A stretch of DNA of 64,000 nucleotides from Candidatus Latescibacterota bacterium (GTDB lineage: Bacteria > Latescibacterota > UBA2968 > UBA8231). This document shows positions 6,489 through 37,569 of the stretch, one piece after another. The stretch spans positions 4,721,842 through 4,785,841 of the forward strand of contig OZ220089.1 in NCBI GenBank assembly GCA_964291625.2. Direction: 5' to 3'. Below the pieces are notes generated by a model. It ran no database searches. It was not told the origin of the DNA and was given only the letters and a program-made list of their open reading frames with translations. Both the position numbers and the translations under genes were made by a program. Each line of letters begins with the position of its first letter. The first letter of the stretch is position 1.

Positions 6489-6505
6489 TGCAAGAGCTGT
6501 GCCAA
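6489..6505 (-). promoter_or_regulatory. Sigma-54 (RpoN) -24/-12 promoter of groES-groEL
   Basis: Minus strand reads TTGGCACAGCTCTTGCA = TGGCAC-N5-TTGCA with exact GG-N10-GC spacing, ~75 bp upstream of groES. Confidence 0.8.
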
Positions 6506-11137: not shown

Positions 11138-11150
11138 GCTGTCTCCGTGA

Positions 11151-11750
11151 TCAGGCGGCGGCGATGCGCTGCCGCAGGCGGTCGCAGATGAGGTGCTGCA
11201 GGGCGAGGTGGAAGGACTCCACCTGCGGCGTGGAGTCGACGGGCACGACGATGCAGACGTCGGCGAGCCGCTTCAGGGCGCCGCCGTCGAAGCCGCTGAG
11301 CCCCAGGGTGCGGGCGCCGCGGTCCCGGGCGACCTGGAGGGCCTTCAGCAGATTCCCGGACCAGGCGCCGGCGTTGCCCTGCCCGGAGCCGCCGTGGACG
11401 CTGATCAGCACCAGCACGTCGCCCTCGCCGATCCAGGCCTCGACCTGCCTGGCGTAGACCGAGTCCGGGCCCTCGTCGTTCATCAGGGCGCTGAAGAGGG
11501 GCATGTTGTCGGTCAGGGCCAGGACGCGGAAGCGGGGCTTGCCCTCGCACAGGGTCCACTTGGCGAGGTCGCAGGCGAAGTGGCTCGCCGTCGACGCCGA
11601 GCCGCCGTTGCCGGCCAGGTAGACCGCCTTCCCCGAGCCCCAGGCCTCGAAGAGGAGGTCGATGGCGGCGTCGATCTGCGGCCGCGGCAGGTCGTCGAGG
11701 ACGGCGCCCATGCGCGCGAGGTAGGCGTCGATGTAGTCCCGGTTGCTCAT
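11151..11750 (-). CDS. gmhA: Phosphoheptose isomerase (SIS domain)
   Basis: 'LAGNGGSASTASHFACDL', 'GLSGFDGG', 'VESFHLALQH'. Confidence 0.85.
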   Translation of the reverse strand: MSNRDYIDAYLARMGAVLDDLPRPQIDAAIDLLFEAWGSGKAVYLAGNGGSASTASHFACDLAKWTLCEGKPRFRVLALTDNMPLFSALMNDEGPDSVYARQVEAWIGEGDVLVLISVHGGSGQGNAGAWSGNLLKALQVARDRGARTLGLSGFDGGALKRLADVCIVVPVDSTPQVESFHLALQHLICDRLRQRIAAA

Positions 11751-11751
11751 C

Positions 11752-13883: not shown

Positions 13884-13966
13884 GTTCCGGCTTTCGGGGG
13901 GATCCAGGGGGTTCTTGCGAAAGGCTCCAAATGTAGGCCGGACTTAAGGTTACGGCAAATCCCGCA

Positions 13967-13995
13967 TTGACCTGTCCGGCCCCCGGGGATAGCTT
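13967..13995 (+). promoter_or_regulatory. Putative sigma-70 promoter for the YfhO/DUF2723/helicase operon
   Basis: TTGACC-N17-TAGCTT. Confidence 0.55.
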
Positions 13996-14036
13996 GGGAG
14001 GCCCCTCCACCCGACGCGGCGAGCCTCGGAAGAGCG

Positions 14037-18414: not shown

Positions 18415-20519
18415 TGCCGCCGGGGACGCCGGCGGGCTCCTGGAGCGGCGAGGTGGCCGCGGCCATCGCCGCCCCGGCGGCCGGCCCGGTGTGGATCGAC
18501 CTGCCCCAGGGGCCGGCCGCCGCCGGCGCCCTGGTCCGCCAGCGGCTGGCCGCGCTCCTCGACCAGGGAGTGAGCGGCGACGAGCTGCTGGTCCTGGTCC
18601 CGCAGCGCCCCCGCCGGCGGCTGGAGCCCGCCGGGGGACAGGGCCGCGGACGGGCGGCGGTCGCTCCCGAGATCCACACCTTCTACGGCCTGGCGGCGCG
18701 CATGGTGCGACTGTTCTGGCCGCGGATCGCCACCGGGGCCGGCTTCGGATCGCCCCTCGACCCGCCGGTCCTGCTGACCTACGAGACCGCCCAGTACGTG
18801 ATGAAGCAGATCGTCGACCCCCGCCTCGCCGAGGGCGCCTTCGACGGCCTCTCCCTGCGGCCCCAGAGACTGCTCTCGCAGCTGCTCGACAACCTCAACA
18901 AGGCCGGCGTCAACGGTTACGACATCGCCGAGGTCGGCCCCCGGCTGCGGGACTCGTGGACGGCCCACAGGGAGGGCCGGGAGGTCTGGTTCGACCAGGC
19001 CCAGGGCTGCATCGAGGCCTACCGCGCCCACTGCCTGGAGCACAATCTGGTCGACGTCTCCCTCGTCCTCCACCTCTTCCGCCGGCACCTGCTGCCCTCC
19101 GACGAGTTCCGGCGCTACCTGGAGGGGCGCTTCCGGCACCTGCTGGTGGAGGCGGTGGAGGAGACGGTGCCCCTGGCCCAGGACTTCATCCGGCAGCGGC
19201 TGGAGGCCGTCGACTCGGCCTGGCTGGTGGCCCGGCGGGACGGGGGGTTCCGCGTCTTCCTCGGGGTCGATCCCGAGGGCGCCTGGTCCCTGCGGGAGGT
19301 CTGCGCCCGGCGCCTGCGGGTGCCCGATGAGCCGGTGCGGCCGACGGTCACCCTCGGGCGGGAGCTGTCCGCCGGCTTCGAGCCGCCCCGGGCCCCCGGC
19401 GAGACGCCCGACGAGGCCGCCGCCGGGGCCCTGCGCCTGCTCTCGGCGCGCCACCGCGGACCGATGGTCGCCGAGGTCGCCGCCGAAGTCGTGCGCCTCG
19501 TCGAAGCGGGCGCCGCCGAGCCGGGGGAGATCGCCGTCGTCGCCCCCCACGCCGACGGCGTCCTGCGGTTCCTGGTGAGCGAGGCCCTCCGGGAGGCGCA
19601 GATCCCCTGCGCCGTGGTCCGCCGCTTCGAGAGCCTGCGCGAGGAGCCCGAGACGAGGGTCGCCCTGGCCCTGGCGGCGCTGGCCTACCCGGCCTGGGAG
19701 CACGCCCCCCACGCCAGCGACGTCGCCGAGGCGCTGCAGGCGGCCCTGAGCCTGGACCCGGTGCGCGCAAGGCTGCTGACGCGGGCGGCGTACGACGCCG
19801 GCTCCGGCGCCCTGCGCGAGCTGGGCGAGGGGGACCCGCGGCTCCGGGAGCGGCTGCCCCCGGGGGCCCTGGAGGCCTTCGAGACCCTGCGCCGCTGGCT
19901 GCGGGCGCGCCGGCAGGGCGAGCCCCAGCCCCTCGACCTCTTCCTCCGGCAGCTCTTCGGAGAGGTGCTGTCGCGGCCCGATCTCGACCCGGGGAGGGCG
20001 GCCATGTACGCGCGCCTGATCTCCTCGGCCTCCTGGTTCCGGCGCTCCGCCCCCTCCCTGGGCACCGGCCCCGACCCCGGGGGCACGGCCGAGGGCTACG
20101 CCCGCATGGTGGAGGAGGGGGTGGTGGCCGCCTCTCACCCTGCGGGCGCACAGCCGGCGGCGGCCGCCGTCCTCGTGGTGGCGCCGGTCTACACCTACCT
20201 GCTGGAGGAGCGGTTCGACCGCTACCAGTTCTGGCTCGACGCCGGATCGATCAGCTGGTGGGAGCCGCCGCACCAGCCGCTGACCAACCCCCACGTTCTG
20301 TCCCGCCGCTGGCGCCGGGACGCCCGCTGGACCGAGGCCGTCGACCACGAGACCCGCAACCGCACCCTCGGCCGCCTGGTGCGGGGGTTGTGCAGCCGCG
20401 CCGGCGAGGCCGTCTACCTGTGCTGGAGCGAGACCGAGGCGGGCGGGCCCCCCGAGGAGGACAGTCCCCTGCTGCGGGCGGCGGCGCGGGTCGCCGGACC
20501 GGTGGAGCGGGCGGCGTGA
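18414..20519 (+). CDS. UvrD-like helicase-fold protein with degenerate ATPase motifs
   Basis: SF1-like layout ('LLVLVPQR', 'HTFYGLAARMV', 'PGEIAVVAP', 'YQFWLD'), but no GxGKT Walker A, and Walker B reads 'LLVEAVEE'. Confidence 0.65.
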   Translation: MPPGTPAGSWSGEVAAAIAAPAAGPVWIDLPQGPAAAGALVRQRLAALLDQGVSGDELLVLVPQRPRRRLEPAGGQGRGRAAVAPEIHTFYGLAARMVRLFWPRIATGAGFGSPLDPPVLLTYETAQYVMKQIVDPRLAEGAFDGLSLRPQRLLSQLLDNLNKAGVNGYDIAEVGPRLRDSWTAHREGREVWFDQAQGCIEAYRAHCLEHNLVDVSLVLHLFRRHLLPSDEFRRYLEGRFRHLLVEAVEETVPLAQDFIRQRLEAVDSAWLVARRDGGFRVFLGVDPEGAWSLREVCARRLRVPDEPVRPTVTLGRELSAGFEPPRAPGETPDEAAAGALRLLSARHRGPMVAEVAAEVVRLVEAGAAEPGEIAVVAPHADGVLRFLVSEALREAQIPCAVVRRFESLREEPETRVALALAALAYPAWEHAPHASDVAEALQAALSLDPVRARLLTRAAYDAGSGALRELGEGDPRLRERLPPGALEAFETLRRWLRARRQGEPQPLDLFLRQLFGEVLSRPDLDPGRAAMYARLISSASWFRRSAPSLGTGPDPGGTAEGYARMVEEGVVAASHPAGAQPAAAAVLVVAPVYTYLLEERFDRYQFWLDAGSISWWEPPHQPLTNPHVLSRRWRRDARWTEAVDHETRNRTLGRLVRGLCSRAGEAVYLCWSETEAGGPPEEDSPLLRAAARVAGPVERAA

Positions 20520-22747
20520 ACGCCTCCGACATCTTCCGCCCCCGGGAAGGGCAGAAGCAGATCCTCGAGTACGAGGGCGGCCTCATGGGGGTGGCGGCGG
20601 TCCCCGGCAGCGGCAAGACCACCACCATCGCCCATCTCGCCGCGGAGCTGCTGGACCGCCGCAGCCGGGGAGAGGGCCCCCTGTCCGAGACCGGTCGGGT
20701 CCTGGTGGTCACCTACCAGGCCGCCGCCGCCGACGCCCTGCGGGGGCGCATCGCCCGGGCCCTCGCCAGCCGCCGGCTGGTCTCCGCGGGGTACGAGGTG
20801 CGCACCCTCCACAGCCTGGCCTTCGGCATCGTCCAGACCTGGCCGGGCCACGCCGGCACCGACTCGGAGCTGCGGGTCCTCGACGAGCGCTCCCAGATGG
20901 AGCTCGTCGACCGCGCCCTGCGCGAGTGGAGCGTGGAGAACCGGCACCGCTGGGAACCCCTGTCGCCCGGAGAGGGGCGGCCCGACGCGGGCTGGGAGGA
21001 GAGGTGGGCGCGCATCGGCCTCGACATGGGGCGCACGGTGATCGCCGCCGCCAAGAACCACCGCCTGGACGCCGACGCGCTCCTCGGGCTGCTGGCCGGC
21101 GCCGGGGACCGCGGCGAGGAGGGCGAAGACCTGTCCCGGCGGCTCCTGCGCATCGGGGCCGAGCTGTACTCCCGCTACCAGCTCCTCGTCGAGAGCTGGG
21201 GCGGCATCGACTTCAACGACATGGTGCGCCTCGCCGTCGACCTCCTCGCCTCCCACGAGGACGTGGCCGAACGCCTCGCCGGGCGCTGGCCCGTGGTGCT
21301 CGAGGACGAGGCCCAGGACAGCGTCCCCCTCCAGGAGGAGCTCCTCGGAAGGCTGACCGCCCGCTCCGGCCACTGGATCCGCGTGGGCGACCCGAACCAG
21401 TCGATCACCAGCACCTTCACCTCCGCCGATCCCCGGTTCCTGCGCCGCTTCCTCGAGCGCGGCGAGGTACGCACCGTCGAGATGTCCGTCTCGGGCCGCT
21501 GCTCGCCGCGGATCATGGAGCTGGCCAACGGCCTGGTGGCCTGGACCTGCCGGGAGTACCCGGTCCTCGAGGTGCGCGACGAGGCCTTCCGCCGCCAGCG
21601 CATGGAGCGATCGGGCGCCGGGGACCCGCAGCCGAACCCGGACGACGGCGACAGCGCCATCGCCCTGCGCTCCTTCGAGGGCCGGGACGAGGAGCTGGCG
21701 TACGTGGCCCGGCGGGCCCTCGGCTTCGCCCGGGGGCGGCCGGACTGCACCCTCGCCGTCCTCGTGCCCACCAACCGTCTCGGCTTCGAGATGGCCGAGG
21801 TCCTGCGCGAGATGGACGTCTCCTTCGACGAGCGCCTCACCACCTCGCGCCGCTCCCGGGCGGTGATCGACCGCCTCGCCCGGGTCCTCACCTTCGTCGC
21901 CGACCCCCTCTCCCCGGCCGCCCTCGAGGGGGTCTTCCGCGTCACCTCGGGCGAGGAGGAGGAGGACCTGCGGCCCCTGGTGCGCAGCTGCTACCGCCCG
22001 GAGAGCCTCCTCTACCCGGCGCCGGGGGTGGCGGTGGCCGACGCCTTCCCGCCGGTGGCGCGCCTCCAGGGCGACCTGCAGCCCCTCGGCGCCCTGGCCC
22101 GCCGGGCCCGCCGCTGGCTGGAGGCGGGGCGATTCCCCGTGGACCAGCTGGCCCTGGCCGTGGCCGCCGAGCTCTTCGAGGGCGACGACCTGGCGCGGGC
22201 CCAGCGCGTCGCCGGACACCTGCGCCGGCGGGCCGACCAGCACCCGGCCTGGCGCCTCCCCGAGCTGGCTGCCGATCTGAAGCGGCCCGAGGCGGCGCGG
22301 GAGATCCTGGCGGGCGAGGAGGAGGCGGCGTACGAGCCCCGGCCCGGACAGCTCACCCTGACGACGATGCACAAGTCCAAGGGCATGGAGTGGGACCTCG
22401 TCTACCTCGTGGGCGTCGACGGCATCGAGTTCCCCGGCACCCCGGAGGACTACTTCCGCGGCCACGAGCCCCACCTCGGGGGCAACCCGGCGGAGATGGC
22501 GAGGGCCCGCCTGACGGCGCTTCTGGAGGCCGGCCCGAGGCCCTCGGCGGCGCCGACCGGCCAGCTGGAGTACATCTGCGAGCGGCTGCGCCTGCTCTAC
22601 GTCGCCATCACCCGGGCGCGGCGCTTCCTGTCGGTCAGCTACAGCCGCACCATCCCCAGCGGACAGCGCACCCGCCCGGCGCCGGAGTCCCTCCTCTTCG
22701 CGCGCCTGGGGGCGCTCCTCGACGACAAGGGGGGAGGTCCCGCATGA
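20516..22747 (+). CDS. ATP-dependent SF1 (UvrD/REP) helicase
   Basis: 'AVPGSGKTT', 'LEDEAQD', 'VGDPNQSI', 'TMHKSKGMEWD', 'RLLYVAITRAR'; GTGA overlap with the upstream gene. Confidence 0.9.
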   Translation: MNASDIFRPREGQKQILEYEGGLMGVAAVPGSGKTTTIAHLAAELLDRRSRGEGPLSETGRVLVVTYQAAAADALRGRIARALASRRLVSAGYEVRTLHSLAFGIVQTWPGHAGTDSELRVLDERSQMELVDRALREWSVENRHRWEPLSPGEGRPDAGWEERWARIGLDMGRTVIAAAKNHRLDADALLGLLAGAGDRGEEGEDLSRRLLRIGAELYSRYQLLVESWGGIDFNDMVRLAVDLLASHEDVAERLAGRWPVVLEDEAQDSVPLQEELLGRLTARSGHWIRVGDPNQSITSTFTSADPRFLRRFLERGEVRTVEMSVSGRCSPRIMELANGLVAWTCREYPVLEVRDEAFRRQRMERSGAGDPQPNPDDGDSAIALRSFEGRDEELAYVARRALGFARGRPDCTLAVLVPTNRLGFEMAEVLREMDVSFDERLTTSRRSRAVIDRLARVLTFVADPLSPAALEGVFRVTSGEEEEDLRPLVRSCYRPESLLYPAPGVAVADAFPPVARLQGDLQPLGALARRARRWLEAGRFPVDQLALAVAAELFEGDDLARAQRVAGHLRRRADQHPAWRLPELAADLKRPEAAREILAGEEEAAYEPRPGQLTLTTMHKSKGMEWDLVYLVGVDGIEFPGTPEDYFRGHEPHLGGNPAEMARARLTALLEAGPRPSAAPTGQLEYICERLRLLYVAITRARRFLSVSYSRTIPSGQRTRPAPESLLFARLGALLDDKGGGPA

Positions 22748-23583
22748 ACCCGCCGCCCCTGAGCCAGAGCGCCCTCTCCGCCTTCGAGCGCTGCGAGCGC
22801 CGGTTCTATCTGCGCTTCGTGCGGCGCCTCGAGTGGCCGGCGCCGCTCACCGGATCCGAGCAGGAGTGGGAGCGCTCCCGCCGCCGGGGGGAGCGGTTCC
22901 ACCTGCTCGTGCAGCAGCACGCCCTCGGCCTGCCGGCGGACCGGATCGCGCACGCCTCCGGGGACGAGGAGCTCACCGCCTGGTGGGAGCGTTTCCGGCG
23001 GCACCCGCCTCCGGCCCCCGAGGGGCCGAGTCTCCGCGTCCACACGGAGTTGGAGCTGGAGGTGGTGCTGGCCGGCGGCCAGTCCCTGGTGGCTCGCTTC
23101 GACCGCCTCGAGGTCAGCGGCGGACCCGGCGGCCTGCGCCTCGACATCGTCGACTGGAAGACCGGCGCCCCGTCGAGCCGGGAGCACCTCGAGCGCAGCT
23201 GGCAGACGGCGGTGTACCGCTTCGTCGCCCTCGAGGGGGCCGGCTCCCTGGCGCCGGGGCCGGTGGCCGCCGAAGGGATCCGCTTCGTCTACTGGCAGAG
23301 CGCCCTTCCCGAGGAGCCGGTGGTGCTGCACTACGACGCCGGGCAGCACGAACAGGCGCGGCAGCGGATCGAGGCGGCGGCGGCGGTGATCGAGGAGCGG
23401 CTCGTGGAGGGGGAGGAGGGATTCCCCCGGACCGAGGACATCGGGGTCTGCCGTTACTGTCCGTACCGGTCCTACTGCGACCGCGGGCGCGAGGCCGGGC
23501 CGGGTGTGGACTTCGAGTCGGACGAGGAGGAAGGCGAGGCCGACGGTTGGCTGGCGCCGCCCGGGGACCCGGAGCCGGGGTAG
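22744..23583 (+). CDS. PD-(D/E)XK nuclease, AddB/Cas4-like, with predicted 4Fe-4S Cys staple
   Basis: 'LSQSALSAFERCERRF', 'ARFDRL...IVDWKTG', 'QTAVY', 'CRYCPYRSYC'; ATGA overlap with the upstream gene. Confidence 0.85.
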   Translation: MNPPPLSQSALSAFERCERRFYLRFVRRLEWPAPLTGSEQEWERSRRRGERFHLLVQQHALGLPADRIAHASGDEELTAWWERFRRHPPPAPEGPSLRVHTELELEVVLAGGQSLVARFDRLEVSGGPGGLRLDIVDWKTGAPSSREHLERSWQTAVYRFVALEGAGSLAPGPVAAEGIRFVYWQSALPEEPVVLHYDAGQHEQARQRIEAAAAVIEERLVEGEEGFPRTEDIGVCRYCPYRSYCDRGREAGPGVDFESDEEEGEADGWLAPPGDPEPG

Positions 23584-24746
23584 CCGGGTCCTTCTTGGAG
23601 GCAATCTACTATGGGCGTGATCGTCTCGATGAGTTCCCGCAGCACGGTGGCCATCTTGTGAGCCAACTCCTCATTTAGCGCACCGGTCCCAAGGTCAGCC
23701 GAGATGTCCCGGTCGTTTACGATCTGCCACTCCTGGTGGGTCCCGATGCCTCTAAGGATGTCCTCAAGCTCAAAGGCCACTTCACCAGTGCTCCTCCGAG
23801 CATGCCTGAAGAGGACACTAGCCTTCCATCTCTTCACTTCGTCTTCCACATCCACTGGAGTCAGTAGAATCTGGTAGTATGTACCATAGCCGCTGCTCTG
23901 CTGGATCCAAGGCGCTCTCAAGTACCTCAGATTGTACCAGCGTGAGTCATAGTAGCTGCCTGCCCACCTGCTCGCCTTGTCCGGACTCATCTCGGCCGGA
24001 AGCCCATCCATCGCCAGTTCTTCGACCCTTCGCACAAAGTGTGTAACGCCATCGTCAGCGTTCGGATTCCTGCCACTGGCCGCCGGCTGGCCCTTGCCGA
24101 TTCTCACCACATCTATCCCGGGTACCGGGATGATGGTCGATGCTTGCAGGTACAATGAATCGGCTCTTGCGTCCCGATACGGGGTCAGTTGTACGCAGGT
24201 GATTAGGTTCTCGTTAGTGGCCTTCTCATTCAGCCACAAGACGGCGGTTGTCACTTCCGGCGCGAACCGGTGGCTTGCCAGAATGAGGCGCTGGTCGTGA
24301 TTCAGCCTAGCATTGAGGTCTTCGACACTCTCGACATTGAGATGTTTCAAGAGGTCGGTCTCGGCATCTGACTCGGAGATTCCCCTGTAGCGGGCAAAGA
24401 TGCCGACGACTTGGTCAGCCTTGGCATGGGAGAAATAGCTCGCGTACCTGATGGCTTGCCAATGAACATCCGCCCCTGAGTCATCGCGTTTGAGCTCGAT
24501 GACAACCAGTTTCCCATCCGTTTCCACTGCCAGCAGATCCGGCCGCTCTCGTGCCCCTTCAAAGTCACTGAACTCCTTGCCGACCAAGAGTAAGTCGTCC
24601 CCCAAAATGCCGGGATTGTTGGATATCCACTCCTGAAGGTCCGCTCGCTCCCTCAATCCCAATTCAGCCAAGTCCACTTCCGTCAGCTCGTTGCTCTCCT
24701 GGCTCTTGGGGTCGATGCGGAGAATCTGTGGCCCGCTGTCCATCAA
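23472..24746 (-). CDS. NucS/DUF91-like PD-(D/E)XK endonuclease domain protein; 3' end reads through the island junction
   Basis: 'ERADLQEWISNNPGILGDDLLLVGKE...RPDLLAVETDGKLVVIELKRDD...QAIRYAS'; the last ~37 codons lie antisense to the host nuclease gene. Confidence 0.75.
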   Translation of the reverse strand: MMDSGPQILRIDPKSQESNELTEVDLAELGLRERADLQEWISNNPGILGDDLLLVGKEFSDFEGARERPDLLAVETDGKLVVIELKRDDSGADVHWQAIRYASYFSHAKADQVVGIFARYRGISESDAETDLLKHLNVESVEDLNARLNHDQRLILASHRFAPEVTTAVLWLNEKATNENLITCVQLTPYRDARADSLYLQASTIIPVPGIDVVRIGKGQPAASGRNPNADDGVTHFVRRVEELAMDGLPAEMSPDKASRWAGSYYDSRWYNLRYLRAPWIQQSSGYGTYYQILLTPVDVEDEVKRWKASVLFRHARRSTGEVAFELEDILRGIGTHQEWQIVNDRDISADLGTGALNEELAHKMATVLRELIETITPIVDCLQEGPGYPGSGSPGGASQPSASPSSSSDSKSTPGPASRPRSQ

Positions 24747-24820
24747 GAGACTCCCGACTTAGGCATCACTTTGAAATGCAAGGGCTGTAGAATCATTAAG
24801 ACACCAAATCCAGGTCCCCG

Positions 24821-25813
24821 TCACCTACTTCGAGGGGGGTTGACCTTGCCTTCCCTCACCTCCCGACGGGTGAGCCTCAGAGGCAGCCTCTTGCCTTTCC
24901 TAGCTTTCGTGAAAACCGAATTCATCCAAAGGACCTCTGTCCGTGGATAGTCCCTTCCCGTGGTGTCCCGCGTGGTAGTATCGATGTCAACCCTCTCCCA
25001 CCCGCGAGTGGCCGTCAAAATCTCGGCATACAGCTCGTTCTCATAGCCACTAACAAGCAGCATACAACGTGCCTTGACGCACTTCTTCAATAGCTCCTGG
25101 TGGAAGGTCTCATCCCGCGCATCGATCATGTATCCATGCTCTCTCCTTGTAAAGTACGGAGGATCCAAGTACATCAAGGTAGCCGGACGATCAACAAACA
25201 TCTCCACCAGCTCCCGTGCATCCCGATTCTCAATCCTAATCCCACGTAGCCTATCCACCACCCTTCCGAGCCTATCTGGCAGATTGCACCAGCGATTGAC
25301 CCGTGCCTCCCTCCCCTCACGTGCATAGGACTGAGAGTATGACCACCCCGCCCTCATGCCTATGCTGCCATTCACTGTCATCATCGCCGCTACCAGAAAT
25401 CTTCGAGCCTGCTCCAGGGGATCCAACTCGGGCTGCCCACCCCCCACCTCTCGATCCTCTCCACCCCCTGTCCCAGTCACCCACTCCCGGGCACGTTCGA
25501 ACTCCCCCCGAGCGTAAGGAGTGAGCTCAACTGCTCGGCAGAGCCCTTCCGCATTGTCTCTCAGCTGAGTGAACAGGTTGACGATTTGCCCATCCTTGTC
25601 ATTAATCACCTCGATGGGAACCGGTGGCTTGGAGAGAGTTAGAGCGGCGGATCCACAGAATCCCTCGACCCATGCATTGTGCGGAGGAAGGATCTCAATG
25701 ATTCTGCGCGCAATCGACTGCTTCGCTCCGTAGTATCCGAAGGGCGACCTGGCCGGATCTGCCACTAGTGACTGTGCATCGTGAGTCTGCGACACGTACG
25801 ACCTAGCAGTCAT
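24821..25813 (-). CDS. DNA adenine methyltransferase (Dam/D12 class)
   Basis: 'FGYYGAK', SAM motif 'WVEGFCGSAA', 'EVINDKDG', catalytic 'YLDPPY', 'TEVLWMN'. Confidence 0.9.
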   Translation of the reverse strand: MTARSYVSQTHDAQSLVADPARSPFGYYGAKQSIARRIIEILPPHNAWVEGFCGSAALTLSKPPVPIEVINDKDGQIVNLFTQLRDNAEGLCRAVELTPYARGEFERAREWVTGTGGGEDREVGGGQPELDPLEQARRFLVAAMMTVNGSIGMRAGWSYSQSYAREGREARVNRWCNLPDRLGRVVDRLRGIRIENRDARELVEMFVDRPATLMYLDPPYFTRREHGYMIDARDETFHQELLKKCVKARCMLLVSGYENELYAEILTATRGWERVDIDTTTRDTTGRDYPRTEVLWMNSVFTKARKGKRLPLRLTRREVREGKVNPPRSR

Positions 25814-26783
25814 CAAGCGTACCTGAACCCGGTTGATGACGCTTCCTGCACTGCACTCCATCTGCCTCAACTTCCCAATTTGCGCTCGACCCAAGAACCG
25901 CCGTGGTAGGGGTCGGAATAATTGCCAGCTCTTCTAGGACGAACCGCCCGTCCCGGGATACCGGCAAAAGGTATAGGTAGTACCAATCCCCGTATCTCCG
26001 CGATGCCTCGATCTCGTTGCGTGTCCAGAAGAATCTCAGTGACCGTCTCTCCACGGCCTTGACCTCAATTAACCTCGGTGCTGCCCTGCCCCTCTCTAGG
26101 GTGAGACTCCGTACATCATACCCCGCCGCCGCATTCACCAAGGCCACATGCTGTACCGAATCCTGATACATCTCACCTAGCCTGCTTCTTTCGTAATTCA
26201 CAATCGTACTCTCCGCTGCAGTCCCAAAGGACTCTCTCTCCGCCTGTACGAGAGCTCTCCTGGCGGGTGTCTGTCTTGCCCCTGCCCAATCCTGGGCTGC
26301 CAAGTAGAGATCGAGTTGAGAATCTCTGACAAAATAGAAATCACCGTCGACACTGTGGGCAATCACTCCGAGATCAATCAGGAAGTTACGTACATTACTC
26401 TCGTAGTGTCGGTAGGGCCTCCTAGGACGGTGTCTTGGGGCACCTCCCTCGATGCTGTAAGCCTGAAGATAGGAATACAGCGCCCTACGGTAGCTATTGT
26501 CCGACCCGAGCAAGCTGTCCACAATCCACCTTCGGACCCAATCCTCATCAATGTCGGATGGCACCTCAATCTCTATCGTACCTACTCCCGCCGTCTTGCT
26601 CCCAGCAACTTCGGTCAAGAAGGCGTGGGTCTCTTCGAAGTTTTCAGCCTGCTCCAGATACAACCGCTTGATGTGGCCAAGATCCCGCAGCTGCGCCCCC
26701 TGCAACACGGAGACCAACTCTCGGATCTGACTCCAGCGAAGCCCCCGAAATCGATCGTCATCCTCCAATGAAAAGTCTCTCAT
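25803..26783 (-). CDS. DUF3883 (NOV-C) PD-(D/E)XK-type nuclease domain protein
   Basis: 'GTAAESTIVNYERSRL', 'AAGYDVRS...RLIEVKA...FFWTRNEI...YYLYL'; overlaps both neighbours. Confidence 0.8.
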   Translation of the reverse strand: MRDFSLEDDDRFRGLRWSQIRELVSVLQGAQLRDLGHIKRLYLEQAENFEETHAFLTEVAGSKTAGVGTIEIEVPSDIDEDWVRRWIVDSLLGSDNSYRRALYSYLQAYSIEGGAPRHRPRRPYRHYESNVRNFLIDLGVIAHSVDGDFYFVRDSQLDLYLAAQDWAGARQTPARRALVQAERESFGTAAESTIVNYERSRLGEMYQDSVQHVALVNAAAGYDVRSLTLERGRAAPRLIEVKAVERRSLRFFWTRNEIEASRRYGDWYYLYLLPVSRDGRFVLEELAIIPTPTTAVLGSSANWEVEADGVQCRKRHQPGSGTLDDC

Positions 26784-28650
26784 ATGCGTCCAGTTCCTCA
26801 TCTTCACTGAACATATCCAGTGAGTAGATTGGATAGTCGTGATCGATGATGGCACCCATGCGCTCTGCTTTCTCCTGTACTGTTCTCAAAATGTCGGAAT
26901 CTATTGTGTCCTCATATTGAAGGAAGTAGTAGTGGGCTGGTCTCTGCTCCGACCCTCCGATCCGATGTATTCGATCGAGTGACTGCACGTACTGGGCACA
27001 ATTGTAGGACAAGTCATAGTAAATGGCCGTGGAGCAGCTCTTGTGTAGCGATACGGACTCAGCACATGCCCCGGGATTTGCCAACAGTATGTCGATCCCA
27101 CTATTGGGGTCCAAGAACTCCTGAACGATCTCATGCCTAGTGAGTTCATCCGTCACACCAGAACGCTCCACCGGAGTCGCACCATAGATGAGTCTCGAGC
27201 CCGCTAGAGGTCGAAGCTTCCCGTGCAGCATCTCCAGGGTTCGGACGAAGTTGGCCCAAATGACCACCTTCTCCTGGCCTCGCCGTAACTCCTCCACCAG
27301 CTCTAGGAGATGATGTACCTTGTTTGGTTCCTCCAGTCCATCGTAGTGTTCGATTACTTCGCCGAGCGGACCAACTGCGTCAGCAAGGTTTTCACTGTAG
27401 GCTGGAACTCCACTTGCCAGCATGGCAGAGTAGGATAGGCACTGGCGAAGCCTCATCATACGCCCCTTTCTCAGCCCCACCAATAAATCCAGGTCCTTCA
27501 TGTAGTCCGAGGAGGAAACGTCGACGATTCTGCCAACAATCAGATCATAGATCTGCCGCTCGTATGGCTTCATCTGGATCTGAATCGGCGAATGAAAAAC
27601 CTGAGGTGCAAGATCCAAGTCGTACTTTCGGACCCGATAGAATAGGGGTCCTATAGCGTCGCTCAGACACTCCCTAGCCGCCTCGAATTCCCGCTTCTGT
27701 GAGTACAGCTCGATTCGATGCCGGGACTCCTCCGGGATGGGAGAGCACTCCGGCCAGAGTACATCGAAGAGGTTGAAGGCATCTGAAAAACTCTGAGGAA
27801 AGGGTGTTCCGGTGAGAACTGCACGGCGAGACGCACAGCGGGCCACATTGACCACTGCGGTCGCCCATACGCCTCCTGGCTGCTTTACGTAATGGGCCTC
27901 ATCAACGATGAAGTAGAAGTCAACCCCCTGTCGCTCAAAGAGGATCTTAACCTGTGTCCAGTCTCGCTGGAGGGTTTGGAACGTGGTCAAATACAGGTCT
28001 GCTACAGATTCCTGGTTGACCAAGTACTCTGTTCGTCGAGCCTCAATGTTGCCACCCGCGAGGATCACACACTTGGGAGCTATCCCAAGGACCTCTTGGT
28101 ATTCGGTCTTCCACGGTCCGAAGCAGGAAGGAGGACCAACGACGAACAGGGAATGGAGCTTACCTTGCTGTCGTAATCTCTCGAAGACCGTCAGGATGAC
28201 GGTGGTCTTGCCACTCCCTGGCACGGAGAAGTTGGCGCCGTTCACGGCCGCCAAAAGATGTAAGGCCGCTTTGCACTGATGGTCCTTGAGGGTACGTGGT
28301 ATGCTGTTCTCTAGGAATTGAAGGAACCGAGCTACCTCCTCCTCATCCAGGTTGCCTTCTTTAAGGACTCCAGCCTTCTCTCTTGCACTACGGTATAACG
28401 ACTCGGCGTCCTCCTGTTCCCTGAGGCGGTCCTTCATGGTGGTTCCCAGTTCAACAGGGAAGGAGCCTCGTTCGAAGTAGTCGCTCACTTTCTTGGCCAG
28501 CTCCGTGGTATCTCCTGAAGGCCCCACGTATCGGCCATCCTTGCCGAATGAGAAGCCCCAAAACATCAGCTGGCTGGTGTGATGTGGTGCAAGATCACTT
28601 TGCTCACAGTCGAGCACCAACCTGTCTTGCTCGGCAAGAATCCGTATCAC
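26758..28650 (-). CDS. SNF2-family (SF2) helicase/translocase
   Basis: 'LKDHQ', 'SVPGSGKTT', 'IVDEAHYVK', 'LTGTP', 'AESVSLH', 'QSLDRIHRIG'. Confidence 0.9.
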   Translation of the reverse strand: MIRILAEQDRLVLDCEQSDLAPHHTSQLMFWGFSFGKDGRYVGPSGDTTELAKKVSDYFERGSFPVELGTTMKDRLREQEDAESLYRSAREKAGVLKEGNLDEEEVARFLQFLENSIPRTLKDHQCKAALHLLAAVNGANFSVPGSGKTTVILTVFERLRQQGKLHSLFVVGPPSCFGPWKTEYQEVLGIAPKCVILAGGNIEARRTEYLVNQESVADLYLTTFQTLQRDWTQVKILFERQGVDFYFIVDEAHYVKQPGGVWATAVVNVARCASRRAVLTGTPFPQSFSDAFNLFDVLWPECSPIPEESRHRIELYSQKREFEAARECLSDAIGPLFYRVRKYDLDLAPQVFHSPIQIQMKPYERQIYDLIVGRIVDVSSSDYMKDLDLLVGLRKGRMMRLRQCLSYSAMLASGVPAYSENLADAVGPLGEVIEHYDGLEEPNKVHHLLELVEELRRGQEKVVIWANFVRTLEMLHGKLRPLAGSRLIYGATPVERSGVTDELTRHEIVQEFLDPNSGIDILLANPGACAESVSLHKSCSTAIYYDLSYNCAQYVQSLDRIHRIGGSEQRPAHYYFLQYEDTIDSDILRTVQEKAERMGAIIDHDYPIYSLDMFSEDEELDAYERLFIGG

Positions 28651-28654
28651 ATCA

Positions 28655-30055
28655 TCACCTCTTGTTGGAGAGTCTCTTCATGTTTTTCGTGTATTGAAAA
28701 ATGTCGGACTCCAACGTCTTTCCGGCTCTGATGATTCTTCCAATGATCTCGCGCGCCCTTCTTAAGTCCCTATTGTCGATAGCGCTAAGGTCCATATTGT
28801 CGTGCGTTAGTTTTCTGTGGGCTTCTTCCAGGAGTTCTATCGGCGTCTCCTTTTCCTTCAAGTGCTGATGGCTTTGAGAAGCCTTCTTGAGGTTGTATAT
28901 GATTGGGCGGCGATACTTGGCCTCCCACTTCGCATCGATTTCCTCTATGCTGAGTTCTTCTCCCTCCTCATCAACGCACTCCTCTGGTGGAAGAACCGGA
29001 GCCACCTCGGCCACAATTCTCTTAATCGCCTGTTTTCCTTCTTCTGTACGGCACAACTTGCTGTAATCTCGCATGATCTTGTGGACTTTGGGCATATCAG
29101 GGACTGTTCTTAGGCGAATGATGTCGAAGGCAGCTGCCTCCAGTTCGCCAATCTCCTCTTCTTTAATCCCTATCTCCATTCGTCGCTTGGGATTGCTGAA
29201 GTAGCGAGTGAATGTGGCGCTATAGTCGGCAAAGGCCTGCCAACGGCCTTCCGAGTCTGCGATACCTCGTGAGACGGTCCGGTATAGGCCATCCCGGGCG
29301 AACTGCCTCAGGTATCGATCGATACAGGCAAGAGGATCGAGGTAGTCCTTTTGGTACCGATCGACTACGCGCTTCAACTGCGCGTTTGTGGTGCCTGCAT
29401 AGGTCGGGTCGTCCGCCACTTGTTCCTCAAGGGTAAAGCCGAGATCCACTTTGCGCTTTATCGACAAGGCGCGATCGAAGCTGTAGTACTCGGCCCTTCC
29501 GTCACTTTGGAGCTGGTAGCGATTCTCGATTTTCTCGATTTCAACAAGGGTAGGTGGGCCGCCCTCCTCGTCTCTTCCTGGGAGGATGACAGCCTGCATG
29601 TACCTGAGGTTCTCATCGCTTGGGGACTCCTTCAGGAGACGCTCCATCGCCATCTTCCGCCGATTCCCATTGATGAGAAAGCCGTCACAGGTAATTATGA
29701 CCGGTTGCTGCTGTCCCGCATGGAGAATCGACTTGACGAGAACCTCGGTGCGTTCCGGGTCCTTTCCCTCAAGGAACTCCCGGATCTTGGCTTGGTCGCC
29801 CTCATCGTTCTCGTCTAACGGGGCAACAGTCTGTTCGTAGTCCAGGACATCTGACGCGATCCGGCCATTGTCCTTGCGATATCTCAGTAGATCGATGGGC
29901 ACCCGCCATACCGGTCGCTCTGTACCGCGAACTTGGTCGTCCCGGAAATTGATAACTTCCTGCGACGGCTTGGCGGTGTCAGTTTTTCGTCTTTGGATCT
30001 CCTTGGCGAAGTCCTCGACTATCTCCCTCGGTGCCTCAGCCGTAATGCGTGCCAT
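28655..30055 (-). CDS. ParB/Srx-like N-terminal domain protein
   Basis: 'LRYRKDNGRI', 'LVKSILHAGQQQPVIITCDGFLINGNRRKMAM' (ParB GxRR motif); GGAGGGAG RBS. Confidence 0.7.
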   Translation of the reverse strand: MARITAEAPREIVEDFAKEIQRRKTDTAKPSQEVINFRDDQVRGTERPVWRVPIDLLRYRKDNGRIASDVLDYEQTVAPLDENDEGDQAKIREFLEGKDPERTEVLVKSILHAGQQQPVIITCDGFLINGNRRKMAMERLLKESPSDENLRYMQAVILPGRDEEGGPPTLVEIEKIENRYQLQSDGRAEYYSFDRALSIKRKVDLGFTLEEQVADDPTYAGTTNAQLKRVVDRYQKDYLDPLACIDRYLRQFARDGLYRTVSRGIADSEGRWQAFADYSATFTRYFSNPKRRMEIGIKEEEIGELEAAAFDIIRLRTVPDMPKVHKIMRDYSKLCRTEEGKQAIKRIVAEVAPVLPPEECVDEEGEELSIEEIDAKWEAKYRRPIIYNLKKASQSHQHLKEKETPIELLEEAHRKLTHDNMDLSAIDNRDLRRAREIIGRIIRAGKTLESDIFQYTKNMKRLSNKR

Positions 30056-30299
30056 TGTCCTAAACTCCCTCCAGAGAGAGTGTTTGACTCAAGATGCCGT
30101 TTCGCCTAACGGACCTCGCCGTCCAGCAGACGGCCGTAGGAAGTGTACCCCGTCAACTGGACAGGAATTGGGCTTGTGCAAGCGAGCGTCTCGAGATGTG
30201 ATGGAGCGGTACGGCGCCCCGGGGCCCGGATCGAAGCCCGGCCTCCCGGACTTGCACCCAGGCCGGGCCCCCGGGGCCGTGAGGAGAGCCCCCCCGCGC

Positions 30300-31127
30300 T
30301 CAGGCCGCCCGGTGGTAGACATCGCTGGGGGTCTCGTAGTCGAAGGCCTGGTGCGGCCGCTCGAGGTTGTAGAAGCGGAAGTAGGCCGCCACGCCCTCGA
30401 TCAACTCGGGGACGGTGTCGTAGGCCTTCAGGTAGATGTCCTCGTACTTCAGGGAGCGCCACAGCCGCTCGATGAAGATGTTGTCCAGCACCCGGCCGCG
30501 GCCGTCCATGCTCACCCGCGCCCCGGCGGCCTCGACCCGCTCGGTGAAGGCGGTGCTGGTGAACTGGGCCCCCTGGTCGGTGTTGAAGATCTCCGGCCGC
30601 CCCTGGCTCAGAGCCTCCTCCAAAGCCTCCAGGCAGAAGGCCGCGTCGAGGGTGTTGGAGACCCGCCAAGCCAGCACGTAGCGGCTGAACCAGTCCATGA
30701 CCGCCACCAGGTAGACGAAGCCGGAAGGCATCGGCAGATAGGTGATGTCGCTGCACCACACCTGGTCCGGCCGGTCCACGGTCATCCCTCGCAGCAGATA
30801 CGGATAGACCCGGTGCTGAGGGTTGGGAGTGGTCGGTCGCGGGCGAGGATAGATCGCCTGCAGGCCCATGACCTTCATCAGGCGATGCACGCGCTTGAGA
30901 TTGACCGGGTGCCCCTGCCGCCTCAGAGCCGCGCAGATCCGGCGCACGCCGTAGACCGGGCGCTTGGTGTAGATCCGGTCGATGACGTTCATCAGGTCGA
31001 GGGTGAGCGGGTCTGGCCCCTCCGGGTGGTAGTAGAAACTGGATCGGGCCAGCCCGAGCAGCTCGCACTGCCGGTGCACGCTCAGCTGGGCGTGGCGCGG
31101 CTCGATGAGAGCGCGGCGCTCAGCCAC
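30300..31127 (-). CDS. IS3 transposase OrfB (DDE integrase core), probably fused to OrfA by a -1 frameshift
   Basis: 'WCSDITY', '[11 protein letters not shown]', '[15 protein letters not shown]'; A8 slippery run at 31141-31148. Confidence 0.92.
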
Positions 31128-31409
31128 CGACAGCCTCGTGTTTTTTTTGAAGCCACTCCAGCTCCATCTGCAGGCGACCGATCTGCTCGTAGAGCTCGGG
31201 CACCGAGGCGGCCTCCTCGTCCGGCCGCCGGCCCCCGGGGCCCTGGAAGGCCTCGGGCAACCGCTCCAGCAACTGCTTCTTCCAGCCGTGGATCTGGCTG
31301 GGGTGGACGGAGAACTTGCGGGCCAGCTCGTTGACCGTCTGCCGCTCGCGCAGGGCCTCCAGAGCCACCTTGGCCTTAAACTGAGCCGAGTGCGTCTTGC
31401 GTTTCCTCG

Positions 31410-31413
<4 letters not shown>
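31120..31413 (-). CDS. IS3 transposase OrfA (HTH)
   Basis: '[17 protein letters not shown]...[20 protein letters not shown]...[18 protein letters not shown]'. Confidence 0.9.
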
Positions 31414-32875
<1,462 letters not shown>

Positions 32876-32879
<4 letters not shown>

Positions 32880-34228
32880 ACCAGCTCTCCGAAGGTCTCG
32901 CTCTCGCGGGCCCGGGTGAGGGCCACCTCGACGAAGGAGTTCGCCCGGACGGGGGTGCCGGCGGTCTCGAAGCGGACGCGGATGTAGTTGTCGGTGAGCC
33001 CGGAGGCCAGGCCGTCCCCGCCGGCATCCTCCACCAGGACGCGCACCCTGCGGCCGAGGTGGCGGCGGTGGAAGTCCAGCCGCTTGCCCTCGCCGAGGGC
33101 GATCAGCTCGCGCACCCGGCGGCTCTTCACCGGGCCGCTGCAGTGGCCGCCGAGGCGCTGCGCCGGCGTCTCCTGGCGCTCGGAGTAGGGGAAGACGTGC
33201 AGGTAGGTGACGGGCAGGCGCTCCAGGAGGCGGCGCGTAGAGGCGAAGTGTTCCTCGCCCTCCCCCGGGAAGCCGGCCATGACGTCGGCGCCGATGGCGC
33301 ACCCGGGCAGCCGGTCGGCGATGCGGGTGATGCGCTCGGCGTAGCGCGCCGCCGTGCAGCGCCGGCCCATGCGCCGCAGCACGCGGTCGTCGCCGCTCTG
33401 CAGGGGCACGTGGAAGTGGCGGCAGACGCTCTCCGTGTCGGCGGCGATGTCGATGAGCCCGTCGCTCACGTACCCGGGCTCGATCGAGTTGAGGCGGATG
33501 CGCTCCAGCCCCTCGACGGCGGCGAGCTGCCGCACCAGGTCGGCGAAGTCGTCGGACTCGTCGGACTCGTCCAGATCGCGGCCGTAGGAGCCGGTGTGGA
33601 CGCCGGTCAGGGCCAGCTCGCGGTAGCCGGCCTCGACCATCTTGCGGGCCTGGGCCAGGACCTCGGCCGGCGGCCGGCTGGCCCCGGGGCCGCGGACGCT
33701 GGGGATGATGCAGAAGGTGCAGTGCTCGTCGCAGCCGTCCTGGATCTGCAGGGTGCCGCGGGTGCGGCCCTCGGCGACGGCGCCGTCGATCTGCAGGAAG
33801 CGCGTGGTGGGGGGCCGCCTTCCCGGGGCGGGGCCCGGCGCCGGGGCCTCCGGGGATCCCTGGTGGACGGCCGCCCCGGGGGGGCCGCCGAGGTGCTCCC
33901 GCACCCTGTCGACGAGACCGGCCTTGTCGGTGTTCGGGACCACCAGGCCGGCGCCGGCGCCGCGCAGCTCCTCGGGCCGGCGCTGGGCGTAGCAGCCGGT
34001 GGCCACCACCAGGGCCTCCGGGTTGCTCCGGCGGGCGCGGCGCACGGCGCGGCGCGAGTCGGCGTCGCCGGAGCCGGTGACCGTGCAGGTGTTGACCACG
34101 TACACGTCGGCCTCCTCGGCGAAGGGGACCACGCGCCAGCCGCTGCCGCCGAACCCGGCCTTGAGGGCCTCGGCCTCGTACTGGTTCAGCTTGCAGCCGA
34201 GATGATGGACGGCGACGCGCGGGGACAC
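32876..34228 (-). CDS. mtaB: tRNA t6A37 methylthiotransferase
   Basis: 'LGCKLNQYEAE', 'VNTCTVT', 'QDGCDEHCTFCIIP', 'LTGVHTGSYG', 'HVFPYSER', 'GLTDNYIRV'. Confidence 0.9.
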
Positions 34229-36833: not shown

Positions 36834-37517
36834 CTATAGCAATTGGCACGTAGGGTGCGGAACCGTCCGGATCAATCGGATGAATCGCTCTCTTCCTGAA
36901 AGCTCCTCAGTTCCCGATTTACGGTTCCACCAAGGGCTACTAGCATGCTGAGTCGCTCCTACCTTGACGTCTTGTTGGGCGATTGATTCCTGAAATACCC
37001 GTGCAGCTTTCATGCTGATGAAAAAGGCATGTCCGGGACTGAGTATTTCCATGACTTGTCGAATCACTTCGCCTGATTCTACGATGTCCAGATCTGTTTC
37101 CCCTATGCTCTCTCCTGTAGTAGCTGGGCGTTGAAACGCGTTCATGAAACAGTACCTCTGCATTATTGAGCAATCGTACTCCTGCCCCGTTGCGTCGCAC
37201 AACGCCTGTACTATGTTTGGTAGAAAAGGGGCCTTCCCCCCTCTCACATGAGAATCAACTATTGCTCTGGTATCTGTCCAACCCTTTTCACAACTATTGA
37301 GACGATTGGCATCCCCTTCGTACCACTGCGTAGCGTCAAGGTGAATGGTACTCTTCTCGGGGAGATAGTGACTCTCACCCAATAGAAGTATGCCCCCCCT
37401 TCGGTAGTTCTTACCGACGAACGGCATCATTTGACGATATCGCCGGTAATGCTCAATTTTCCGAAATCCCTTATCGTAACTGTTTGTGTAGTAGTAGGTG
37501 TTGTTTTCTTCGCTCAC
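36834..37517 (-). CDS. Low-GC hypothetical protein, uracil-DNA-glycosylase-like fold suspected
   Basis: 'PFVGKNY...ILLLGESHY', 'FMNAFQRP', 'QHASS'; AAGGAG RBS; AT-rich relative to host. Confidence 0.55.
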   Translation of the reverse strand: MSEENNTYYYTNSYDKGFRKIEHYRRYRQMMPFVGKNYRRGGILLLGESHYLPEKSTIHLDATQWYEGDANRLNSCEKGWTDTRAIVDSHVRGGKAPFLPNIVQALCDATGQEYDCSIMQRYCFMNAFQRPATTGESIGETDLDIVESGEVIRQVMEILSPGHAFFISMKAARVFQESIAQQDVKVGATQHASSPWWNRKSGTEELSGRERFIRLIRTVPHPTCQLL

Positions 37518-37569
37518 TTCACTCTCCTTACGAATCTACGGGCTCAATGCATAGTGCAAGAGCGGGGCG

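Follow-up and report, generated by a model that had tools for sequence, protein, structure and literature searches.

What is the function of a block of lower-GC genes in an otherwise GC-rich bacterial chromosome, and do its genes act together? This question is raised by a stretch of 64,000 nucleotides from Candidatus Latescibacterota bacterium (assembly GCA_964291625.2, contig OZ220089.1, positions 4,721,842 to 4,785,841), which is called the window below and to which all coordinates refer. The GC content of the window is 0.70-0.78 in most 1-kb bins and 0.53-0.57 between 24 and 30 kb, where five long co-oriented open reading frames (ORFs) on the minus strand, g1 to g5, fill the low-GC stretch. 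An earlier interpretation made from the DNA letters and ORF translations (the sequence-only reading) had proposed that these genes encode an undescribed defence system consisting of a ParB-like protein, a SNF2 ATPase, a DUF3883 nuclease, a Dam-like methylase, and a NucS-like nuclease. The analysis presented here indicates that g1 to g4 probably represent a restriction-modification-like immune cassette, which is related to the lactococcal system AbiR and is predicted to contain a nucleoside triphosphate (NTP)-gated switch of the ParB type. The fifth gene is an independent neighbour.

Four tightly coupled genes form a conserved and mobile cassette

The genes of the cassette are the following, in reading order:

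28655..30055, minus strand: g1, 466 aa, predicted ParB/Srx-fold protein; N-terminal NTP-binding-type domain at about aa 40-185 (GNRR, IENRYQ), central helical domain, C-terminal long helical hairpin at aa 370-465
26758..28650, minus strand: g2, 630 aa, SNF2-family ATPase; Walker A GSGKT at aa 145-149, DEAH at aa 250-253, motor at aa 111-630, fast-evolving N-terminal region at aa 1-110
25803..26783, minus strand: g3 from its ATG start (ORF 25803-26855, 350 aa and open up to the GTG at 26855); two winged-helix domains and a PD-(D/E)xK nuclease of the NOV_C/DUF3883 type
24821..25813, minus strand: g4 from its ATG start (ORF 24821-25894, 357 aa and open up to the TTG at 25894); D12-class (Dam-like) N6-adenine DNA methyltransferase, DPPY at aa 244-247

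Counted from the ATG starts, g1 and g2 are separated by a gap of 4 bp, while g2 and g3 overlap by 26 bp and g3 and g4 by 11 bp. This is the arrangement of co-oriented, lower-GC genes described in the sequence-only reading, and every motif listed there (GNRR; GSGKT/DEAH; YD..IEVK; DPPY; PD..ELK) is present. Its assignments of the four proteins were likewise borne out: structure prediction identified g1 as ParB-like, profile matches placed g2 in the SNF2 family and g3 among the DUF3883 nucleases, with invariant motifs in both, and g4 matched the D12 methylases with its DPPY motif in place.

We scored the conservation of the cassette in a set of 6 genome loci and the best 80 of 514 confirmed metagenome loci around relatives of g1, in which the window proteins were placed by tblastn. 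Among the loci with at least 2 kb downstream of g1, g2 follows g1 in 51 of 53, and g3 is present in 49 of 51. The D12 methylase was found in 27/42 loci. In 13 of the 15 loci without it, a DNA methylase of the N6_N4 class lies directly after g3 (11 co-oriented with the cassette, two in the opposite orientation), and the other two (L005 and L078) hold only a truncated g1. A DNA methylase of either class therefore adjoins in 40/42 loci. The synteny of ParB, SNF2, DUF3883, and methylase genes that the sequence-only reading had suggested searching for does exist, and its view of g1 to g4 as a tightly coupled, restriction-like module agrees with the conserved gene order, the intact catalytic motifs, and the nearly constant methylase partner.

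The surroundings of the cassette are not conserved. Flanks differ in all 24 long loci examined, and no Pfam family except methylases occurs in more than two of them; some flanks hold transposases, an integrase, Cas3-HD, ResIII, or a Panacea antitoxin. Relatives of g1 are numerous: 1486 proteins were found at E <= 1e-3 among 8000 candidates scored, and an exhaustive search yielded 908 cluster representatives at E <= 1e-3 and 92 clusters (50% identity) at E <= 1e-30. The 120 relatives listed are 57-100% identical to g1 and carry no Pfam domain, and their source names, where given, are 'hypothetical'. Records with an organism name span about nine phyla, including Latescibacterota, Verrucomicrobiota, Planctomycetota, Bacteroidota, and Peregrinibacteria. 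When viral_contigs was searched using the g1 alignment, 137 sites matched the pattern but not one was confirmed. Within its own phylum, g1 occurs in five of 168 genomes, each in a different genus; it is single-copy in the genome studied here, and the cassette was found in none of the nine other genomes of the genus searched (completeness 76-96%). Taken together, g1 to g4 are a self-contained, horizontally mobile module that travels as a unit across phyla.

The cassettes of a Cytophagales metagenome-assembled genome (MAG; L003) and a Candidatus Peregrinibacteria MAG (L004) are close sisters (g1 84% and methylase 85% identical), which indicates a recent transfer between very distant phyla.

g1 is predicted to adopt the ParB/Srx fold

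No Pfam or PADLOC family matches g1, and Pfam searched at E <= 10 returned only 4HB_MCP_1 (E 0.12). The TIGR00180 ParB model scores 15.4 bits, far below its cut-off of 58.45. Searches of PDB chains with the single sequence and with a 46-sequence profile gave nothing relevant, the sole row being a haemagglutinin coiled coil (E 0.9). Fold prediction was required to recognize the ParB-like nature of g1. The AlphaFold2 model, for which 46 diverse sequences were used, reached a pLDDT of 90.1 and a pTM of 0.81. When this model was searched with Foldseek, all rows shown at ranks 1-26 were ParB, Noc, KorB, Spo0J, or pNOB8 ParB, with 5K5D as the best match (E 2.8e-3). An independent VIA-align search placed ParB/Srx proteins at the first seven positions:

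PadC: Z 8.8, rmsd 2.5 Å, 94 residues aligned
KorB: Z 8.7, rmsd 11.4 Å, 150 residues aligned
pNOB8 ParB-N: Z 8.2, rmsd 4.0 Å, 211 residues aligned
Arabidopsis sulfiredoxin: Z 7.3, rmsd 3.0 Å, 86 residues aligned
Free serine kinase 5x0b, which we take to be of the ParB/Srx fold: Z 6.0, rmsd 3.1 Å, 86 residues aligned
Spo0J: Z 5.8, rmsd 4.0 Å, 161 residues aligned
Human sulfiredoxin: Z 5.7, rmsd 5.2 Å, 89 residues aligned

The GNRR motif lies within DGFLINGNRR (aa 124-133) and belongs to the residues that are invariant in the 46 sequences (N63, R65, Q115, D124, G125, G130, N131, R132, R133, and E177). When the g1 profile was aligned to 12 chromosomal ParB proteins from related genomes, GNRR fell on GERR and IENRYQ on IENIQRE, an alignment that is weak if taken alone (E 0.014). 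We take these two positions to correspond to Boxes II and III, the ParB motifs for CTP binding and hydrolysis. The predicted fold and this weak alignment thus place a conserved GxxR phosphate-binding motif in a ParB/Srx-type domain. The approximately 100 C-terminal residues form a long helical hairpin in the model. By the TIGR00180 and Pfam thresholds g1 does not belong to the canonical partition proteins, and no ParA gene was found near it. The canonical ParB of this genome is encoded elsewhere (TIGR00180 E 2.3e-51).

Longer g1 relatives (498-620 aa; P0143, P0155, P0157) form a subfamily that is extended at the N-terminus by about 165 aa. In three of four extended relatives scanned, this extension gave a weak HNH-like match (E 0.006-0.009, below the Pfam cut-offs), and it may be another way of joining a nuclease to the ParB-like subunit.

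g2, g3, and g4 are a predicted motor, nuclease, and methylase

The g2 protein matches SNF2-rel_dom (E 3.2e-14), ResIII (E 2.1e-10), and Helicase_C in Pfam, and its Walker A, DEAH, and C-terminal helicase motifs are invariant in 31 sequences. PADLOC models of ZorD (E 4e-26) and DpdE (E 1.9e-14) match in the motor region only, and the HmaA model only at aa 458-596 in the C-terminal part of the motor (E 7.8e-9). PADLOC revealed no N-terminal PLD or PbeA match. We also co-folded g2 with residues 1-365 of g1, alongside three controls. The pair reached an ipSAE of 0.59 versus 0.00 for the best control, with at least 97% of contacts shared between runs and a partner pLDDT of at least 73. Of 157 solved complexes, 116 reached the ipSAE mark, as did two of 215 mismatched pairs; values of 0.60 or under accounted for only 18 of the 157 and for both mismatches that passed. 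The modelled complex therefore lends weak support to a contact between g1 and g2.

For g3, the model (pLDDT 88.6) comprises an N-terminal part with two winged-helix domains and a C-terminal nuclease domain. The latter matches NOV_C in Pfam (E 3.4e-13) and resembles I-Ssp6803I (Z 8.9), Hjc (Z 8.7), and NhoI (Z 8.2) in its fold. Its motifs GYD (aa 245-247) and IEVK (aa 263-266; both numbered from the GTG start) are in place, and the catalytic residues E198, D223, E240, and K242 (model numbering) are invariant in 31 sequences, so that both the profile match and the conserved E...D...ExK arrangement assign g3 to the NOV_C/DUF3883 branch of the PD-(D/E)xK nucleases. The N-terminal part resembles the recognition domain of FokI (Z 7.3, 155 residues aligned), the DNA-recognition domain of BpuJI (Z 5.9), and many winged helix-turn-helix proteins. 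In many loci, the tblastn match to g3 starts 70-90 nt upstream of the end of g2 (26758-26855 in the window; also L001, L006, L007, L009, and L013). The overlap between g2 and g3 may therefore be longer than the ATG codon implies, and conserved.

The g4 protein matches MethyltransfD12 in Pfam (E 6.5e-13) and MTase_II in PADLOC (E 5.1e-53); its only relative in the PDB was DpnM, a weak match (E 1.6e-4).

Sequence variation and mosaicism of the cassettes

Mean pairwise identities were calculated from 33 complete cassettes. They amount to 0.54 for g1, 0.59 for the motor of g2, and 0.44 for the nuclease domain of g3, and drop to 0.29 for the 110 N-terminal residues of g2 and to 0.27 for the winged-helix region of g3. 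The methylase is conserved as well as g1 or better. In the related cassettes L014, L041, and L043, the methylases are 91-97% identical, with identities down to 55-58% in the g3 winged-helix region. A tree of g1 consists of two clades, each with 100% SH-aLRT support. Clade 1 contains only cassettes with a D12 methylase (16 rows), among them the window cassette as sister to another Latescibacterota locus (71% identity). Clade 2 is mixed, with 11 N6_N4 rows and six D12 rows. Parsimony requires three changes of methylase class on this tree, of which well-supported branches force only one.

Identities among the three related cassettes are also mosaic: L041 and L043 share 91% in both g1 and methylase and just 58% in the N-terminus of g3, and L014 and L041 share 92% in the g2 motor, 90% in the g3 N-terminus, and just 80% in g1. 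Such a pattern suggests that cassettes recombine with each other at the borders of genes or domains.

Relatives in Lactobacillales link the cassette to AbiR

AbiR of the Lactococcus lactis plasmid pKR223 is described in the relevant passages of a review (PMC13064643) as a three-gene system that confers phage resistance, is grouped with the Abi-like systems lowering phage DNA replication, needs the methylase LlaKR2I, and is toxic without it. According to the same passages, AbiRb is ParB-like and was superimposed on PDB 5K5D, AbiRc carries a SauUSI-like nuclease at its N-terminus and an Snf2 ATPase at its C-terminus, the third protein, AbiRa, is similar to a sigma70 factor, and a reliable complex of the three components is predicted (PMC13064643). 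The best Foldseek match of the g1 model is this same PDB entry, 5K5D.

The N-terminal half of g1 matches annotated ParB N-terminal domain proteins in 17 plasmid and four phage records. A block on a plasmid of Lactobacillus plantarum encodes a C5 methylase, a ParB-like protein, a PLD-SNF2 protein of 862 aa, a protein resembling a restriction endonuclease (REase), and vsr. The Streptococcus prophage Javan191 carries REase-like, ParB-like, SNF2, DUF3883-like, and C5 methylase genes. The homology of these proteins to the cassette is as follows:

g1 profile vs L. plantarum ParB-like protein: E 1.6e-26
g2 profile vs L. plantarum PLD-SNF2 protein, residues 273-838 of 862: E 4.4e-50
g3 profile vs Javan191 DUF3883-like protein: E 1.9e-23
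g1 vs ParB-like protein of L. lactis plasmid L102 (BLASTP): E 5e-15
g2 vs adjacent helicase of L102 (BLASTP): E 1e-46

By both its fold and its profile match to the L. plantarum protein, g1 is a subunit of the AbiRb type. Judged from this profile homology, the ParB-like/SNF2 pair appears to be the constant core of the family, around which nuclease and methylase are interchangeable. PADLOC holds no model for any of these ParB-like proteins.

On two conjugative Lactobacillales plasmids (L102, 2002-10016; L104, 1062-9169), the ParB-like/helicase pair lies directly behind a Type III Mod-Res pair, with an 11-bp overlap between Res and the ParB-like gene in L102 and the latter following by one base in L104. 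This direct adjacency suggests that a classical restriction-modification system can be supplemented by the pair.

The cassette lies on a recently acquired island next to an independent candidate defence gene

The following features adjoin or contain the cassette:

23584..30105, minus strand: horizontally acquired island of 6.5 kb (GC 0.55), carrying g5 and the four-gene cassette
23472..24746, minus strand: g5, 424 aa, NucS_C-type PD-(D/E)xK protein of the PADLOC candidate family PDC-S11
30139..31490, minus strand: IS3-family insertion sequence with orfA (31120-31464) and orfB (30300-31127); Pfam HTH_Tnp_1, HTH_21, rve, and rve_3

The GC content of g1 to g5 is 0.53-0.58, compared to 0.76 and 0.71 in the flanks. 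The island stands in place of a short spacer between two convergent host genes. To its left, host DNA runs up to 23583, where a PD-(D/E)xK gene of the host ends with its stop codon; this gene follows one for a UvrD-like helicase. The convergent gene on the right encodes a radical-SAM (MiaB-like) protein. Two genomes of the same genus (L119 and L117) align to the window with about 95% identity up to 23583 and again from 31489 onwards, with 36 and 158 bp in between, and thus show the empty site. Host sequence is again recognizable at 30106-30138, and the junctions read as two separate events, the insertion of the 6.5-kb island and that of the IS3-family element. The cassette is therefore a recent insert in this genome. 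The IS3 element has terminal inverted repeats of 27 nt (30139-30165 and 31464-31490) with GTA at both sides, and the host sequence of the relatives is unbroken across its site; its insertion is independent of the adjoining island and it lies outside the system. It has inserted into the radical-SAM gene at the 3' end, where it apparently displaces about the last ten codons. Scans of the island for promoters and terminators gave results at or below the shuffled expectation, and an Rfam search of positions 20000-34000 found no match. Other stretches of lowered GC content in the window (48001-53000, 37001-38000, and 5001-7000; 0.60-0.67 versus about 0.72) may be acquired segments, too.

The sequence-only reading had assigned the span 23472..30143 to the system and had counted g5 as its second nuclease. 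The genes of this span stand, whereas the island proper is shorter: g5 has no stop codon inside the island and its last 112 nt (23472-23583) are host DNA. The C-terminus of g5 is thus chimeric or truncated through the insertion, and its last 37 codons overlap, in antisense orientation, with the 3' end of that PD-(D/E)xK gene of the host. A single system of all five genes with two nucleases would be in line with the orientation of g5, its GC content (0.58), its position 74 bp downstream of g4, and its presence on the same insert. But relatives of g5 were found in none of the 86 related loci (tblastn), and g5 matches a separate single-gene candidate family of PADLOC (PDC-S11, E 9.7e-64 over aa 10-219; Pfam NucS_C E 1.2e-6; motifs RPDLLA at aa 68-73 and IELK at aa 83-86). 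Together with the ORF being cut by the island border, this makes the five-gene version highly improbable. Therefore, g5 is an independent candidate defence gene that shares the island with the cassette.

Discussion

How could the four proteins work together? In the model that we favour, the g4 methylase would mark adenines of the host and thereby protect self DNA. The g1 protein is built like a complete ParB, with an NTP-binding domain, a helical middle part of the DNA-binding type, and a potentially dimerising C-terminal hairpin, and could serve as a DNA clamp or switch that is gated by an NTP. When incoming DNA is unmethylated, g1 would license the SNF2 translocase g2 and the nuclease g3; g2 would then move along the DNA and g3 would cut it. 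We infer the order of events, the nucleotide used, and the site reader, and the toxicity of the effector without methylation is borrowed from the AbiR literature. It is possible, though we hold it with considerable doubt, that g1 is a true ParB-type clamp in immunity, which loads, closes on NTP, spreads or scans, and hands g2 and g3 to the target only on unmethylated DNA.

A number of observations weigh against the reading as a restriction-modification-like cassette related to AbiR, and they concern the fold of g1, the role of g3, the state and surroundings of the cassettes, and the link to AbiR. No PDB structure matched the g1 model at E <= 0.001 in Foldseek, the VIA-align Z values of 8-9 lie in the middling range of the scale of this tool, and hhalign assigned a probability of just 3% to the match between g1 and ParB; with Z near 8 being middling, the weight rests on the consistency of the ParB/Srx match list. 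The g3 nuclease might have been expected to read the site of the methylase through its winged-helix domains. We considered such a co-variation and found little support for it: when identities of g1 and the g2 motor are controlled for, the partial correlation between the g3 N-terminus and the methylase is 0.11 for the cassettes with a D12 methylase and 0.39 for those with an N6_N4 methylase, and the methylase is more conserved than this domain (e.g., 0.97 versus 0.55 between L014 and L043). The simplest model, in which the nuclease reads the methylase-marked site, is therefore without support. As these data speak against a tracking of the methylase by the hypervariable N-terminus of g3, the likelier site reader is g1 or, in the manner of MANTIS, Type I, and Type III systems, the methylase. 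The L002 copy of the cassette (10001-15240) has frame breaks in g1, g2, and g3, where tblastn hits are split in two, and the G025 copy of g1 (C1:179761-181172) contains one internal TAA; both are either decaying copies or products of long-read errors. Most flanks of the 24 long loci consist of ordinary housekeeping genes and are not defence islands, whose proximity the sequence-only reading had named as a check. As to AbiR, the cassette lacks a counterpart of the sigma70-like AbiRa (none of g1 to g5 has a sigma70 match in Pfam, and the island has no room for another gene), and g2 is a Snf2 motor without the fused PLD nuclease of AbiRc, its nuclease being the separate g3. Moreover, the link was drawn from the description in the review and from Lactobacillales plasmid genes of matching design, not from the pKR223 proteins.

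Three other explanations have to be weighed against the restriction-like cassette. A phage-triggered system of abortive infection or replication interference, in which a phage cue activates the ParB-like/SNF2/nuclease complex and the methylase only restrains basal self-toxicity, would fit the original classification of AbiR and its place among the Abi-like systems with reduced phage DNA replication in the review passages (PMC13064643). It would also fit the pattern of variation, as the N-terminal regions of g2 and g3 are the fastest-evolving parts, compatible with an arms race with phages, and do not track the methylase. But a methylase of either class is adjacent in 40/42 loci, no sensor-type domain was found, and the toxicity of AbiR without its methylase, as reported in the review, is a hallmark of self/non-self marking (PMC13064643). 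We therefore give this explanation a small chance. Quite improbable, in our view, is a selfish module of mobile elements for addiction or establishment, which would be the split counterpart of polyvalent-protein domains and serve the spread of the element or anti-restriction. Polyvalent proteins of conjugative elements and phages do repeatedly combine domains of the ParB superfamily, SWI2/SNF2, and adenine methylases (PMC5512222), the distant relatives are encoded by conjugative plasmids of Lactobacillales and by a Streptococcus prophage, and the cassette is patchy and mobile. Yet none of the 137 pattern matches in viral_contigs was a confirmed relative, most of the long loci have chromosomal housekeeping flanks without conjugation or phage genes, and the cassette has kept an intact nuclease, with AbiR conferring phage resistance in the account of the review (PMC13064643).

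A housekeeping role, with g1 as a ParB for segregation and the SNF2 protein and nuclease for repair, could be suspected from the fold and the ParB-like domain order of g1. We regard it as extremely improbable: the genome has its own canonical ParB elsewhere while g1 stays far below the TIGR00180 cut-off, there is no ParA nearby, the cassette was not found in the nine other genomes of the genus searched, and its GC content is foreign. The restriction-modification-like immune cassette with a ParB-type switch is thus the reading that we retain as probable.

If the clamp model is true, a very large family with AbiR as a member would be the first immune system with a ParB clamp as sensor or licensing step, with nuclease and methylase modules interchangeable around a constant ParB-SNF2 core. 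To our knowledge, no mechanism has been presented since 2000-2006 for AbiR, which is the only tested relative. The mechanism of the cassette would explain AbiR and show the role of a switch of the ParB-CTPase fold in immunity. It would also add a common system to defence annotation, where it currently escapes detection because g1 has no PADLOC model. For the genome studied here, a recent defence insert of 6.5 kb is marked.

Comparison with known systems

The sequence-only reading had named DISARM and BREX as points of comparison. These are poor ones, since only the generic SNF2 core matches: the models of DrmD, BrxH, ZorD, and DpdE match the motor of g2 only, and no gene of the island matches the other core genes of DISARM (DrmABC), BREX (PglZ, BrxC), Zorya (ZorABC), or Dpd (DpdA-C). 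Three further candidates were dropped: the DUF499-centred BR systems, as the cassette has no DUF499 protein; ARMADA II, which is without a ParB-like part; and Druantia, where ParB is only a DNA label in the paper concerned.

Hma (HmaABC), for which the name Type-1 BREX-related system is also in use, consists of an SNF2 helicase fused to a DUF3883 nuclease (HmaA), a methyltransferase, and a DUF499 AAA+ ATPase (PMC11232893; PMC12839542). It shares with the cassette the combination of SNF2 helicase, DUF3883 nuclease, methyltransferase, and an extra NTPase, and the HmaA model matches g2. However, motor and nuclease are split into g2 and g3 in the cassette, HmaB is usually of the DUF1156 type, and a ParB-fold protein takes the place of the DUF499 AAA+ ATPase HmaC, of which the island has none. 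MANTIS (Gao_RL, BR type 2) resembles the cassette in that its four genes provide an NTPase loader, a methylase, and an effector of helicase and nuclease. According to the MANTIS preprint, the methylase reads the site for modification and restriction alike (10.64898/2026.09.23.753747), and we use this system as a working model for the possible roles of g1 and g4. We found no sequence relationship between the two, and MANTIS contains a DUF499 AAA+ ATPase, a DUF3870 protein, and a PLD nuclease.

With the CTP clamps ParB, Noc, and KorB, g1 shares the fold, the domain order, and the GxRR phosphate and ENxxR/Q motifs in the alignment, but it differs in having no ParA, no Pfam ParB match, and a different C-terminal domain. 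Proteins of the ParB/Srx fold bind CTP, ATP, or GTP, and the nucleotide is not predictable from sequence, according to the summary given in a survey of this fold (10.1101/2025.10.10.680097). The classical Type III and Type ISP restriction-modification systems have in common with the cassette an SF2 motor, a PD-(D/E)xK nuclease, and an adenine methylase, and g2 matches ResIII. In contrast, the motor of the cassette is of the SNF2 type, its nuclease is a separate protein, and it has the ParB-like subunit in addition.

The closest relationship is that to AbiR. Both combine a ParB-like protein, an Snf2 ATPase, and a nuclease with a DNA methylase; methylase dependence and toxicity are known from the review for AbiR, while for the cassette the association of the genes was observed. 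Apart from the missing AbiRa and the unfused nuclease discussed above, the cassette differs by its in-operon methylase of the D12 class, and its identity to the Lactobacillales ParB-like/PLD-SNF2 pair is just 25-30%. In full-text searches of the literature, no paper apart from the AbiR review (PMC13064643) named a cassette of ParB-like, SNF2, DUF3883, and methylase genes. The suggestion of the sequence-only reading that the combination is undescribed holds only in part: AbiR provides a precedent, whereas the variant with a split nuclease and an in-operon methylase has no name and its g1 no PADLOC match. Taken together, the cassette is not a wholly new kind of system but follows the AbiR design, of which it is a widespread variant still without a name.

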